This document shows, one piece after another, positions 8,578 through 11,126 of a DNA stretch of 64,000 nt (the stretch's first letter is position 1; each line of letters opens with the position of its first letter). The notes under the pieces are model-generated. The model saw nothing but the letters and a program-made list of their open reading frames with translations. It did no database searches and had not been told where the DNA came from. The stretch covers positions 6,661-70,660 of the forward strand of contig CACBPP010000004.1 in NCBI GenBank assembly GCA_902541175.1. Reading direction: 5' to 3'. Source of the stretch: an uncultured SAR86 cluster bacterium (lineage in GTDB: Bacteria; Pseudomonadota; Gammaproteobacteria; Magnimaribacterales; D2472). The position numbers were made by a program, and so were the translations under genes.

Positions 8578-9330
8578 ATGAAATTACTTTTAAGTATATC
8601 TTTGCTCTTCAGTTTTGTAGTTCTAGCCGATGATCATGTTGAATCATCAGGTTATGAGCCAAATGTAGCTGAGTACTATGTTAGTTCTTTTAAAGAAGGT
8701 AAGGATATGGATGATATGATGAAATGGGCTGCAAAGTGGACTAAATGGGCTGAAGAAAGTGAAGCGCTTAAAGATTATAGATCTGCAATGTTAGTTCCAT
8801 ACTATCATTCTGGCGAATTGCCTCATGATTTTGTTTGGGTTGGCATTAGTCCAAATCCTGAAGCACATTATGGCGGCAATGATCATTGGATTAATAATGG
8901 TCAGAAACTTCAAGCAGAGCTAAACACAATTCTTGAGTCTGGAAATCAAGCAATTTTTACATGGCAAAGAACAGTTTCAGAAACTCCAGATGGTCAAGCT
9001 AGCTATGCAGTATATAGTGACTGCAGATTAGCAGAAGGAGTTACCTCAGAAGATGTTTATAACGCATATTATGCATATGCAAAAGCAGCAAAAGAACTTG
9101 GTGATGTGGCTGGAAGAAAAATGATTTTTCCAGGAGCAGGAACAGGTTCTGATTGGGATTATGATTATGTTCAATTAGTTACAACATCAACAATTGCTGA
9201 TTACGGTAAAAATTGGACAAATTTTTGGTCAGATCAAGCAGGAGAGATGCCGGAGCTTAAAGCTCTTGAAGAACTTGGTGGTGTTTGTGAAAACGAACGA
9301 TCTTACAGTATTGTTCCCGTCAAGAATTAA
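8578..9330 (+). CDS. Exported hypothetical two-domain protein (same family as 19903 and 20770)
   Basis: SD AGGGAG, signal peptide, EGKDMDD...DFVWV and CRLAEGVT...DYVQL repeats, C-terminal Cys. Confidence 0.75.
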   Translation: MKLLLSISLLFSFVVLADDHVESSGYEPNVAEYYVSSFKEGKDMDDMMKWAAKWTKWAEESEALKDYRSAMLVPYYHSGELPHDFVWVGISPNPEAHYGGNDHWINNGQKLQAELNTILESGNQAIFTWQRTVSETPDGQASYAVYSDCRLAEGVTSEDVYNAYYAYAKAAKELGDVAGRKMIFPGAGTGSDWDYDYVQLVTTSTIADYGKNWTNFWSDQAGEMPELKALEELGGVCENERSYSIVPVKN

Positions 9331-9349
9331 AATATTGTCTTATTAATTT

Positions 9350-9376
9350 AAGGGAGTTTTTTAACTCCCTTTTTTT
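9350..9376 (+). terminator. Rho-independent terminator
   Basis: AAGGGAGTT-TTTT-AACTCCCTT followed by a T tract. Confidence 0.85.
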
Positions 9377-9390
9377 ATTTTCCCAGACTA

Positions 9391-9449
9391 AAAAAACTAT
9401 TTTTTTTTGCAAAAAAAGTGTTGACATCTAATTTAGTAGGAGTAATATT
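9391..9449 (+). promoter_or_regulatory. Strong sigma70-type promoter with A/T-tract UP element, driving the ncRNA
   Basis: A/T tracts 9391-9418, perfect TTGACA at 9421-9426, TAATAT at 9443-9448. Confidence 0.7.
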
Positions 9450-9453
9450 AAAT

Positions 9454-9676
9454 GTACGGATGGCAACCGACTAGTGACCAACTGCAGACGGGAAGCTAGA
9501 GAGAAAGCCAGACGGAGAGACCGAAGGGTGAAAGCATTTGCAAGAGTCGATGATAAAAAATAGCTTGCAGATCCACCAAGGATTCAAGAGAAAGAATCCA
9601 AGGAGCTAAAGAAAATCTCACTTTAGACCCCTGAGGAATCGATTGAAAGAAACAGAGCTAGTCTCTGTTTTTTTTT
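9454..9676 (+). ncRNA. ~220-nt structured non-coding RNA, IMES-1-like
   Basis: GC- and purine-enriched intergenic island with its own promoter and terminator (GAAACAGAG-CTAGT-CTCTGTTT, T tract). Stems TGCAAG/CTTGCA, GGATTC/GAATCC, GGTG/CACC, CTCA/TGAG. Segments ACCAACTGCAGACGGGA and AATCTCACTTTAGACCCCTGAGGA resemble the marine IMES-1 motif as I recall it; not verified by search. Confidence 0.7.
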
Positions 9677-9716
9677 GCCTTGCAAAATGTCATTTATTCA
9701 TTAATATCGTCATGTT

Positions 9717-11126
9717 ATGGCTTTTACAAGAACAAAAATAATTTGCACTATTGGACCACAAAGCTCTAATAAGGCAACATTATGTAAACTTCATTCAGCT
9801 GGTATGAATGTTGCCAGGATTAATATGTCCCACGCAACTCATAAAAATGCAAAAGAGATTATAGATATAATTAAAAGTATTAATGAGACCAAAAATAGTA
9901 AGTTATCTAACATTGGTATATTGCTTGATACTCAAGGTCCAGAAATAAGAACAGGTGATACCTCTCTTCCAATTAATCTCAAAGTTGGTGACAAAGTTAC
10001 ATTAACTGTTCGTGATGAAGTCGACGTAGAAACCTCATCTATAAAGGTCAATTACAAAGGTCTTGTTCATAGTGTTGATGTTGGCTCAAGGATTTCTGTT
10101 GATAATGGATTGATTAGTTTTAGAGTTCTTTCAAAAGAATCAGATAATTTAGTTTGTAAAGTAATTCACGGAGGAAAGGTAGGCTCAAAAAGACATGTAA
10201 ATTTGCCAGGCGTAAGATTAGATATGCCTTCAATAACTTCAAAAGATATGAAAGACATTACCTTTGGAATTAAAAATAATGTAGATTTTATTGCTGCTTC
10301 ATTTGTCAGAAATAAAAAAGACCTTAAGATATTAGAAGACCTTCTTCTTAAACAAAAATCAGAGTCAAAAATCATAGCTAAAATTGAAAATCAAGAGGGA
10401 TTAGATAATATTGATGAAATTTGTGAATCTGCTTGGGGCATCATGGTCGCAAGAGGTGATTTAGGTATTGAAACTAGTCTTACAGACTTACCAAATATTC
10501 AAAGAAAAATAATGCATTCTTGTGCAAAAAGGGGCAAAAGATCTATTGTTGCTACTCATTTGCTTGAATCAATGATACAAAATCCAACACCAACAAGAGC
10601 AGAGGTTACTGATGTTGCAAATGCTGTATATGAAGGTGCTGACGCCATAATGTTATCTGGAGAAACTAGTATTGGTAAATATCCAGTTGAATGTGTGAAA
10701 TATTTAAAATCAATATCTAAAAGAACAGAAAAATTTCAAACTTTAGAATATGAAAAAGAACTCATAAGAAACTCAGATTGGGAGTCAATTGCTGTTGCTG
10801 CTAGAGACTTAAGTGAGTCTATAAAGGCTGATGGAATAATTGCTGTTACAAGAACTGGATCAACTGCTGGTTATATATCAAACGCAAAACCAAAAGATAT
10901 TCCAATCTATACATTTACCAACAATAACAACACATTAAATCAATTGTCTTTAGTGGGCTCAGTCATTCCTTTCTATTTAAAGAGATTAAATAATCATAAA
11001 AAGACTCTTGAGCATGTTAAGGATGTACTAAAACCATTACATAGAAAAAAGAAATTAAAATTTGTTATGGTTTCTGGCATATTCTCTGAGAAACATTCAG
11101 AGGCAATTCAAATAATTAATTTTTAG
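9717..11126 (+). CDS. pyk: Pyruvate kinase
   Basis: RTKIICTIGP, ARINMSH, LLDTQGPEIRTG, IIAKIEN, MVARGDLG, PTRAEVTDVANAVYEGADAIMLSGET. Confidence 0.97.
   Translation: MAFTRTKIICTIGPQSSNKATLCKLHSAGMNVARINMSHATHKNAKEIIDIIKSINETKNSKLSNIGILLDTQGPEIRTGDTSLPINLKVGDKVTLTVRDEVDVETSSIKVNYKGLVHSVDVGSRISVDNGLISFRVLSKESDNLVCKVIHGGKVGSKRHVNLPGVRLDMPSITSKDMKDITFGIKNNVDFIAASFVRNKKDLKILEDLLLKQKSESKIIAKIENQEGLDNIDEICESAWGIMVARGDLGIETSLTDLPNIQRKIMHSCAKRGKRSIVATHLLESMIQNPTPTRAEVTDVANAVYEGADAIMLSGETSIGKYPVECVKYLKSISKRTEKFQTLEYEKELIRNSDWESIAVAARDLSESIKADGIIAVTRTGSTAGYISNAKPKDIPIYTFTNNNNTLNQLSLVGSVIPFYLKRLNNHKKTLEHVKDVLKPLHRKKKLKFVMVSGIFSEKHSEAIQIINF

Follow-up and report, generated by a model that had tools for sequence, protein, structure and literature searches.

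A free-standing gene for IMES-1 RNA in SAR86 bacteria, with two self-complementary loops that point to self-association

IMES-1 is an RNA known for its marine origin and for being very strongly represented in marine RNA libraries. To our knowledge, its function has been open since 2009. The motif is held in Rfam as RF02034 and presumably goes back to Weinberg, Perreault, Meyer and Breaker (2009); IMES-1 appeared as an RNA in no paper of the literature searched, a search that did not reach the 2009 paper, which may mention palindromes. A second relevant report is Dupont et al. 2012 (PMC3358033). In the sections of that paper accessible to us, an ncRNA abundant in metatranscriptomes is placed in the SAR86 genome region for glycolysis and glucose uptake, Shi, Tyson and DeLong 2009 is cited, and RNA-based control of carbon assimilation is already suggested.

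The locus described here lies in a 64,000-nt stretch of DNA, which we call the window. It belongs to a 1.16-Mb SAR86 (Magnimaribacterales) genome that is 90% complete. The assignment to SAR86 draws on pyk, which is 70% similar to that of AAA076-P13, a record that PMC9771814 names as a SAR86 genus, and on agreement with the description in Dupont et al. 2012. On the plus strand, which carries all parts of the RNA gene given below, positions 9461-9652 match RF02034 at 190 bits (gathering score 81, E = 6.5e-43), and the match spans the whole model (positions 1-191 of 191). The interval is a full-length member of a known family and, as a gene call, ordinary: it shares with the IMES-1 motif the multi-stem covarying architecture, the marine origin and the high metatranscriptome representation, and differs in nothing essential. 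The IMES-1 label that a preliminary description of this DNA had given was right. 6S RNA resembles IMES-1 in length, in having its own promoter and in its high abundance, but it is a rod with a central bubble, whereas the IMES-1 fold is branched. An identity with 6S RNA was rejected on that ground and because IMES-1 is the only Rfam family that the interval matches. A role as a 6S replacement was rejected because 6S RNA has a gene of its own in this genome (G000:C1:289160-289332, 54 bits to RF00013).

The RNA is highly structured. Among 46 sequences, 85.7% of the pair cells of the RF02034 structure are paired, compared with 27-55% when the pairing is slid along the alignment and with no equally high value in 500 shuffles, and both sides have changed in 28 of the 35 pairs. 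The predicted fold of 9455-9680 has an energy of -59.1 kcal/mol versus -47.0 +/- 4.2 kcal/mol for shuffled sequences (z = -2.9; 3 of 200 shuffles were equally good). RNAalifold, run on a MAFFT alignment, independently recovered P3, P4, P5 and the terminator; it missed the 5' domain and P2, owing to the poor alignment of that part. The 5' domain (9457-9514) is predicted to consist of a proposed terminal helix, P0, together with P1 (9461-9464 with 9507-9510) and an inner hairpin (9471-9475 with 9495-9499), the latter two being in the Rfam structure and covarying. P0, which would pair 9457-9458 of the leader with 9513-9514, draws its covariation from one family of the order, here called f2: a sequence's own partner beats mismatched partners in 22 of 23 f2 copies, in 21 of 38 from the host's family (f1) and in 2 of 10 from f4. 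As a helix of f1 and f4 it was rejected, since covariation does not support it there, and a few f1 copies break it. Between the stems lie invariant, purine-rich junctions, AGAGAGAA, GNGAAAGC, CCACCAAG and CAAGGAGC, that have no assigned RNA partner. One junction, AAGGAG (9600-9605), holds a GGA that the Rfam structure leaves unpaired; in the RNAalifold structure the GG of this junction pairs with the CC of the invariant CCACC block, CC itself being invariant, and these pairs are the same in 61 of 61 sequences and hence give no covariation signal. A GGUG-CACC pairing flanking P3 was rejected, as its U changes to C or A while CCACC stays unchanged. What the present analysis adds to the Rfam structure is the 5' terminal helix, with its f2 support, and self-complementary hexamers in two loops.

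Transcription of IMES-1 begins at a strong sigma-70-type promoter of its own and stops at an intrinsic terminator that also belongs to the gene. A/T tracts at 9391-9417 may act as an UP element; upstream of the -35 box, a T-run of at least 6 and an A-run of at least 5 occur together in 43 of 54 related copies. The -35 box, TTGACA (9421-9426), and the -10 box, TAATAT (9443-9448), are separated by a 16-nt spacer and together match the consensus at 10 of 12 positions. All 34 f1 copies have TTGAC at the same place (the full TTGACA in 24), copies from f2, f3 and f4 have TTG-type boxes, and a TAnnnT box stands at the -10 distance in 54 of 54 copies. The promoter scan alone is weak evidence, as it returned 3 promoter-like sites in 9200-9900 compared with 2.0 +/- 1.5 in shuffles. 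Transcription probably starts near 9456, at the A of the 5' leader ACGGA, a prediction based on its 8-nt spacing from the -10 box and on conservation of the leader. In most relatives the leader reads ACC, and RNA contigs that join the 3' part to a relative's ACC leader lend weak support to this start. The terminator (9645-9676) is predicted to fold as a 13-bp hairpin (9645-9675) with a G+C core at 9653-9667 and a loop at 9658-9662, and its U-run covers 9668-9676. All of the 54 related copies have a hairpin with T7 or longer behind it, and both partners of one stem pair have changed in 14 of 61 sequences; a consensus terminator scan listed only the terminator of the upstream gene, at 9350-9371, and not this one. 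Promoter, leader and terminator are all conserved among the 54 copies.

Transcription is also seen in RNA data. In four of four marine metatranscriptomes, each from a different study, contig depths over 9440-9691 add up to 7e4 to 3e6, compared with 0 to 0.8 in the promoter bin (9356-9439) and 0 to 55 over both flanking genes; these depths are rough sums over many relatives' contigs, which cannot rank genes or measure the expression of the window copy. All 24 of the matching RNA runs listed are marine, seawater or aquatic metatranscriptomes. The preliminary description had read the interval as an autonomous structured RNA of ~220 nt with multiple stems, UP-element-like tracts, a TTGACA promoter and an intrinsic terminator. 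The Rfam match, the fold, the covariation and the conserved flanking signals bear this out, each element lies where it had been placed, and the transcription that the description wanted checked is present.

How widespread is the gene? IMES-1 was found in 79 of 100 genomes of the host's family, and in 22 of the 26 that are at least 90% complete. A comparison across the order Magnimaribacterales found it in 34 of 39 f1, 31 of 40 f2, 24 of 30 f4 and 4 of 40 f3 genomes; the four f3 cases are weak matches, and canonical IMES-1 occurs in none of the 40. Among 151 genomes sampled across the class, the only two with IMES-1 belong to Magnimaribacterales, with none in the 149 other gammaproteobacterial families sampled. 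IMES-1 is specific to this order, in three of its four families.

Two of the loops carry a feature that is kept through sequence change. First, the apical loop of the 5' domain (the P1 loop) contains the hexamer CUGCAG (9482-9487); in each of the 131 copies the hexamer here is perfectly palindromic. It has two variants: CUGCAG, carried by 71 f1 copies, 24 f4 copies and a single f1-type copy from an f4 genome, and CUCGAG, carried by 35 f2 copies. Its mean predicted probability of being unpaired in the monomer is 0.65. This hexamer shows one change on the tree, and by our own estimate roughly one in five random changes to the central dinucleotide would give such a lone compensatory change by chance. 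Second, the P3 loop contains GUCGAU (9546-9551), self-complementary with two G.U pairs. The hexamer at this site is self-complementary in all 131 copies, through 11 variants, G.U intermediates among them; it is perfect in 104, and the other 27 need two G.U pairs. A perfect palindrome is present in 48 of 57 distinct P3 loops, whereas 5000 shuffles averaged 9.1 and never exceeded 19. The test is conservative but imprecise because the simple rule used to set loop boundaries makes some loops too long, which raises the shuffle expectation. On a tree built without its columns, the P3 hexamer has changed 10 to 25 times; the value of 25, from parsimony, is an upper-side estimate, as a tree from ~180 columns is noisy. 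Its predicted unpaired probability in the monomer is 0.77. Some P3 self-duplexes would be weak, with GUUGAC, GUUAAC and GUAUAC at -2.6 to -4.0 kcal/mol.

Such hexamers are not a general property of the RNA. There is no palindromic hexamer in the P5 loop, J2/3 or J3/4 in any of the 131 copies, and none in J1/2 (6 of 131 if G.U pairs are allowed); the P4 loop has one in 26 of 131, of which 24 are a single invariant f4 sequence. In genomes with two copies of the gene, the paralogs have the same P3 hexamer in 10 of 11 cases, and the eleventh pair is cross-compatible. Pairing of the P1 loop with the P3 loop, or of either with an invariant 3' CUCGA, was rejected by inspection, as the partners do not change together. 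Taken from sequence comparison, the two loop hexamers point to self-association by kissing loops.

What might self-association mean for the RNA? The explanation that we favour, with somewhat better than even confidence in the whole of it, is that the locus is a free-standing gene for the ~220-nt IMES-1 RNA of the SAR86 order and that this RNA self-associates through its two loops. IMES-1 would act in trans as an abundant folded particle, copies of which would bind each other through the hexamers of the 5'-domain apical loop and the P3 loop. This pairing would give at least dimers, and chains or closed rings would be possible because each molecule has two independent self-pairing sites. The invariant purine-rich junctions may then build the tertiary core or offer a partner a surface to dock on. 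For the more specific proposal that IMES-1, which ranks among the most abundant non-ribosomal RNAs of the surface ocean, is a self-assembling RNA, in which two covarying kissing loops join copies into dimers, alternating chains or closed rings, we put the chances at about even. The two self-complementary loops offer a concrete and cheap lead on IMES-1 function that can be tested decisively. A SAR86 isolate now exists for follow-up, according to the available text of PMC11582366; for the isolate HIMB1674, the family appears to carry IMES-1.

Self-association need not exclude proteins, and a possible but unlikely alternative is that IMES-1 serves as a scaffold or sponge for a protein, with the palindromic loops secondary or used to dimerise the ribonucleoprotein. 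Other abundant bacterial RNAs of similar size, namely 6S RNA, SRP RNA and tmRNA, act with proteins, and the four invariant junctions that have no RNA partner could be read in the same way. No neighbouring protein gene is conserved across families, however, and the preserved self-complementarity of the two loops through at least 10 changes goes unexplained unless the scaffold is combined with self-association.

A base-pairing sRNA that acts in trans to tune carbon-assimilation mRNAs, as suggested in the accessible part of Dupont et al. 2012 (PMC3358033), is improbable in our view. The suggestion has some appeal. Judging from its position, the ncRNA of that paper is probably IMES-1: it comes from the same lineage and the same variable region of glycolysis and glucose-uptake genes, although the name IMES-1 is absent from the text available to us. 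Copies in f1 often lie among genes for sugar or central-carbon metabolism (pyk, glucokinase, KDPG aldolase, malate synthase, a sodium:solute symporter), and the long invariant single-stranded blocks could be seeds. However, the neighbours are family-specific, with ETF-QO and DUF1285 genes in f2, and short-chain dehydrogenase and prephenate dehydratase genes in f4, and the adjacency behind the 2012 proposal holds only in part of one family. A search of 150 genomes from the order found no Hfq, and ProQ was not found in the one genome searched, that of the host. The structure, the order-wide invariance and the extreme abundance would also be more typical of housekeeping or scaffold RNAs than of sRNAs that act by a seed. 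The same paper bears on the preliminary description, which had placed such an RNA next to the glycolytic genes of a defined host. That placement holds at the window locus; neither host nor context is new, because the accessible part of the 2012 SAR86 paper had reported the abundant ncRNA in a sugar-gene region.

It is very improbable that IMES-1 regulates pyk and the downstream sugar-uptake genes in cis, as a leader or riboswitch. On the same strand, pyk follows IMES-1 after 40 nt, and a single RNA contig that spans 9646-9898 leaves room for some read-through into pyk. Against this, the strong terminator is present in every copy compared, and contig depth, again a sum over relatives' contigs, falls by at least four orders of magnitude there. 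The downstream genes also vary by locus: with INDEPENDENCE from neighbouring genes, pyk is the downstream gene at 13 of 31 loci from f1 and at none of 20 from f2, f3 and f4. Elsewhere the same-strand downstream gene is a glucokinase, transketolase-like, patatin-like or prephenate dehydratase gene, and at other loci opposite-strand genes converge on IMES-1 (KDPG aldolase, an ammonium transporter, OAD-beta, DUF1285). Two named single-cell loci (L039 and L042) have no IMES-1 next to pyk. This synteny largely refutes the leader reading. IMES-1 is not tied to pyk, and the link to pyk and carbon flux is a family-specific neighbourhood rather than a conserved association.

CsrB and RsmZ RNAs titrate CsrA through GGA motifs, and the preliminary description, which correctly located six GGA motifs and the duplicated contexts CAGACGG and CCAAGGA, proposed that IMES-1 likewise sequesters CsrA and so controls carbon flux; IMES-1 is not a CsrA sponge, and we give that proposal next to no credence. 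Its abundance and its GGA motifs would suit such a role, as would the GGA at 9602-9604 in CAAGGAGC, which 45 of 46 sequences keep and which the Rfam structure leaves unpaired. However, six GGAs are what chance provides (5.5 +/- 1.4 in dinucleotide shuffles, with at least 6 in 985 of 2000), and the other four of the five core motifs are unconserved. In order, column-exact conservation of the five is 22, 1, 19, 45 and 20 of 46 sequences, the second being shifted to AAGGAAG in most f1 copies. Two GGAs are wholly or partly inside covarying stems (one within, one straddling a stem end), one overlaps the proposed 5' terminal helix, and by the Rfam structure there is no GGA in short apical loops of the ANGGA type. 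CsrA itself (PF02599), which the preliminary description had wanted looked for, turned up neither in the host genome nor among 100 genomes from the same family; these genomes are incomplete, so absence means not found in those searched. By family, CsrA was found in 0 of 39 f1, 0 of 30 f4, 35 of 40 f2 and 36 of 40 f3 genomes. Thus, f2 has both IMES-1 and CsrA, f1 and f4 have IMES-1 without CsrA, and f3 has CsrA with almost no IMES-1. The Rfam models for CsrB, RsmX, RsmY and RsmZ gave no match at the gathering score, nor at E values up to 10 on 9380-9700. Like CsrB, RsmY and RsmZ, IMES-1 is an abundant, structured, purine-rich small RNA with some GGA motifs; unlike them, it has no GGA enrichment or conservation, no CsrA in the host's family and no match to their models. 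The sponge hypothesis falls on grounds that the preliminary description had itself named, and the four-family cross-table shows that IMES-1 is kept where CsrA is missing.

The closest parallels to the proposed self-association come from other systems. The retroviral dimerisation initiation site has, like IMES-1, an exposed self-complementary loop hexamer whose self-complementarity is preserved by covariation; in the 5'-domain loop of IMES-1 the hexamer stands between AA and A, an arrangement like that of the retroviral site. Among bacterial RNAs, the likeness is to the RNA-only assemblies OLE, ARRPOF, ROOL, GOLLD and HYER1 and their kissing loops (PMC12990946); IMES-1 is not mentioned in the part of that review available to us. 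As far as that text goes, IMES-1 differs in being much smaller (~0.2 kb compared with 0.26 to 0.8 kb) and in its host, a free-living, streamlined marine bacterium. If IMES-1 does self-assemble, it would do so in a bacterium that apparently lacks Hfq, ProQ and, in family f1, CsrA, and it would in principle be a small relative of the recently solved OLE, ROOL and GOLLD assemblies.

What is the feature upstream of pyk? It is a standard IMES-1 gene of a SAR86 genome: real, properly named and already known. The Rfam model RF02034 matches positions 9461-9652 of the forward strand over its full length (model positions 1-191 of 191; 190 bits against a gathering score of 81; E = 6.5e-43), confirming the label given in the preliminary description. 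The Rfam comparison suggested there gave no CsrB or Rsm family: these are absent from a permissive scan of 9380-9700, where the next best match is AgrB (27.7 bits against 40) and nothing else comes near its cut-off. Covariance models find only two tRNAs elsewhere in the 64-kb window, and 6S RNA has a separate gene on the minus strand of contig C1 of the same genome (G000:C1:289160-289332, locus L132; 54 bits against a cut-off of 46.4). IMES-1 lies in a spacer of 386 bp between a gene that ends at 9330, encoding a 250-aa protein without a Pfam family, and the pyruvate kinase gene, pyk, at 9717-11126 (PF00224, E = 1.4e-111).

The RNA has its own transcription signals. Upstream, on the forward strand, are A/T tracts (9391-9417), a perfect −35 element, TTGACA (9421-9426), and, after a 16-nt spacer, a −10 box, TAATAT (9443-9448). 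The promoter scan on its own is weak, with 3 sites in 700 nt against 2.0 expected; the case for a promoter comes instead from conservation of the layout, which is the same across 54 related copies. All 54 have a TAnnnT box and a hairpin followed by T7 or more, and all 34 of those from the window's own family have TTGAC. Judging by the distance from the −10 box, transcription should start near A9456. The predicted fold of 9455-9680 includes an intrinsic terminator on the same strand, with a 13-bp hairpin at 9645-9675 and a U-run at 9668-9676, only 40 nt from the pyk start codon; the terminator scan did not list it. A start near A9456 would give an RNA of ~220 nt, the length originally proposed.

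Transcripts matching this interval, those of relatives included, are found in the sea. Parts of 8600-11100 occur in 24 listed RNA runs from 14 studies, every one a metatranscriptome of marine, seawater or aquatic origin. The runs are kept as assembled contigs, and four, from four studies, were examined for depth. In three bins over 9440-9691, contig depths add up to 7e4 to 3e6; for the promoter bin (9356-9439) the sum is 0 to 0.8, and for both flanking genes it is 0 to 55. Because such sums include contigs of relatives (at least 92% likeness) and cannot rank genes, they are used here to show that the RNA is present and where its limits lie, and no ratio is drawn from them. The metatranscriptome check suggested earlier returned contigs of high summed depth, relatives included, across the RNA. 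One 276-nt contig (run X1, record 4) spans 9646-9898, from the IMES-1 terminator into pyk, and some read-through into pyk is possible. Separately, runs X1, X4 and X9 contain head-to-tail joints at 9463-9642, in which a 3′ part of IMES-1 is joined to the ACC leader carried by copies of relatives (depth 50-2700 against a total of 1e5-3e6). They may be an assembler artefact or come from RNA that is circular or concatenated; template switching at the 5′ end of the RNA is a third possibility, which would account for the joints and would agree with the predicted start.

IMES-1 is widespread in the SAR86 order, Magnimaribacterales, whose four families are called f1 (the window's own) to f4 here. Four SAR86 families and a first isolate have been described (PMC11582366); in the sections of that paper covered, "non-coding", "ncRNA", "small RNA" and "CsrA" do not occur. 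Judging by genus counts and genome sizes, family f1, with 10 genera, presumably corresponds to the D2472 or "Suzuki" family. The closest named relatives of the pyruvate kinase (60-76% identity) include "Gamma proteobacterium SCGC AAA076-P13" and "AAA168-P09"; AAA076-P13 and D2472 are listed as SAR86 cluster genera in the part of PMC9771814 covered. The host assembly (1,155,361 bp, 13 contigs, 90% complete) has one IMES-1 copy. The RNA was found in 79 of 100 f1 genomes, including 22 of the 26 that are at least 90% complete, with all 10 genera represented. Across the order, it occurs in 34/39 genomes of f1, 31/40 of f2, 24/30 of f4 and 4/40 of f3; among 151 genomes sampled across the class, one per genus, it occurs in the 2 from this order alone. 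Several copies lie at contig ends, so some apparent absences are probably assembly breaks. Many related genomes have two copies (G066:C7:42213-42729, G004:C2:70485-70991, G069:C11, G046/G052/G039, G040/G065/G025, G029, G027, G005), which are in tandem ~325 nt apart, separated by ~1.2, 7.6 or 10.4 kb, or distant and inverted. The f3 matches are confined to one genus, g12 (0/34 in other f3 genera), and reach only 31-35 bits, under the cut-off of 81. They represent a divergent IMES-1-like RNA of 157-159 nt (L129:3001-3159, L130:3001-3159, L131:3001-3157; genomes G101, G149, G167) with a similar promoter and terminator, a CUCGAG loop and a different 3′ half, upstream of a class-I Trp/Tyr tRNA synthetase gene. 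Two records are probably mis-binned: a 3.4-kb contig of an f4 genome with an f1-type IMES-1 near-identical to the window's (L118, G111:C31:1-3380), and SAR86 DNA in a MAG titled Methanobacteriota archaeon, whose pyruvate kinase is 96% identical to the window's (L032, NYXO01000071.1).

Is IMES-1 a leader of pyk? This reading was rejected: pyk lies downstream on the same strand in 13 of 31 f1 loci and in 0 of 20 loci from f2, f3 and f4. At other f1 loci the upstream neighbor is malate synthase, a GH2-like protein, indoleamine dioxygenase, peptidase M20 or isochorismatase, and the downstream neighbor is glucokinase, KDPG aldolase, an ammonium transporter, or a transketolase-like, OAD-beta or patatin-like gene, with several encoded on the opposite strand. 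In f2, IMES-1 lies between ETF-QO and a convergent DUF1285 gene (9/10 loci); in f4, it lies between a divergent short-chain dehydrogenase and prephenate dehydratase (6/6). With such variable neighbors, IMES-1 is a free-standing gene, and the sugar-gene surroundings are a trait of part of one family. Nor are the host and glycolytic context new: Dupont et al. 2012 (PMC3358033), in the part covered, inferred RNA-based control of carbon assimilation from an abundant non-coding RNA in the SAR86 region for glycolysis and glucose uptake which, judging by its position, is probably IMES-1, a name not used there.

Could IMES-1 instead be a CsrA sponge controlling carbon flux, as the preliminary description proposed? 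This reading was also rejected, for three reasons. First, the six GGA motifs are where they were said to be, but their number is that expected from composition (5.5 ± 1.4 in dinucleotide shuffles; at least 6 in 985 of 2000). Second, only one of the five core GGAs is conserved, with column-exact matches in 22, 1, 19, 45 and 20 of 46 copies. In most f1 copies a shifted AAGGAAG stands in place of the second, whose GG is proposed to pair with the 5′ leader; the GGA at 9580 begins stem P4 of the Rfam structure (stems P1-P5), and the G at 9635 closes P2. The conserved motif, CAAGGAGC (9602), sits in a junction, not an apical loop, and RNAalifold pairs its GG with the invariant CC of CCACC, in pairs that never vary. 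The supposed duplicated context CCAAGGA is simply both flanks of P4. Third, the suggested search for csrA found no CsrA (PF02599) in the window's genome or in 100 f1 genomes, which are incomplete (26 of the 100 at least 90% complete). Across the order, CsrA is patchy: 0/39 in f1, 0/30 in f4, 35/40 in f2 and 36/40 in f3. Two IMES-1-bearing families are therefore without detected CsrA, f3 has CsrA without canonical IMES-1, and f2 is alone in having both. Searches found no Hfq in 150 genomes of the order and no ProQ in the window's genome.

Covariation supports the Rfam structure. The fold of 9455-9680 (−59.1 kcal/mol, z = −2.9; equaled by 3 of 200 shuffles), apart from the terminator hairpin, reproduces the Rfam architecture. 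The Rfam structure was projected onto 46 copies, drawn from three families and aligned with MAFFT. Standard pairs then filled 85.7% of pair cells, against 27-55% with partners slid by 1-3 columns. Both sides change in 28 of 35 pairs, and none of 500 shuffles matched the observed covariation. The low score of 45% for the inner helix in the 5′ domain reflects misalignment by MAFFT. There are 124 distinct full transcripts; a blind RNAalifold run on 61 of them found P3, P4, P5 and the terminator again, with double changes in 15 of 28 pairs, but not the 5′ domain or P2. The 5′ leader, ACC in most copies and ACG in the window, can pair with the GG after P1. In f2 this helix is continuous with many compensatory variants, and a copy's own partner beats within-family mismatches in 22 of 23 cases; the figures are 21/38 in f1 and 2/10 in f4, where the bases hardly vary, and the helix is broken in a few f1 copies.

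What, then, might the structure do? Across 131 IMES-1 copies from 120 genomes, two loops are self-complementary. An invariant AA in the 5′ domain's apical loop is followed by a hexamer that is a perfect palindrome in all 131: CUGCAG in f1 (71), f4 (24) and one f1-type copy in an f4 genome, and CUCGAG in f2 (35), with a single change on the tree. The P3 loop has a self-complementary hexamer in 131/131 copies, 104 of them perfect and 27 with G.U pairs, in 11 variants. Seven are perfect (GUCGAC, GUAUAC, GUUAAC, GCUAGC, GGUACC, GCAUGC, GCCGGC) and four contain wobbles (GUCGAU, the window's own, GUCGGC, GUGCAU, GUUGAC). GUCGGC and GUUGAC are single-step intermediates linking perfect palindromes, as in GUCGAC to GUCGGC to GCCGGC. 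Among 57 distinct P3 loops, 48 have a perfect palindrome (mean 9.1, maximum 19 in 5000 shuffles), and all 57 do with G.U allowed (mean 15.6, maximum 26). The P3 hexamer required 25 parsimony changes (floor 10) on a noisy tree built without the loop columns. Among internal controls, the P5 loop and junctions J1/2, J2/3 and J3/4 each have a palindromic hexamer in 0/131 copies (6/131 for J1/2 with G.U allowed). The P4 loop has one in 26/131, of which 24 are AGAUCU, invariant in 24/24 f4 copies, so this third palindrome supports no conclusion. Predicted unpaired probability in the monomer is 0.65 for the 5′ apical hexamer and 0.77 for P3, against 0.50 over all positions. In 10 of 11 two-copy genomes, the P3 hexamer is identical between the paralogs.

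The simplest explanation for a hexamer that varies repeatedly while remaining its own reverse complement is pairing with its counterpart on a second molecule, that is, kissing-loop self-association, a reading that comes from comparative sequence analysis. With two self-pairing sites, dimers, chains or rings are possible. The best-supported mechanism is that of a very abundant, folded, trans-acting RNA whose copies would associate with each other through two loops. Among the papers searched, none names IMES-1, and the 2009 discovery paper may already mention the palindromes. IMES-1 is not among the RNAs in the part covered of a review on natural quaternary assemblies of RNA (PMC12990946). The assemblies that the review does describe, OLE, ARRPOF, ROOL, GOLLD and HYER1, use kissing loops or palindromic pairing.
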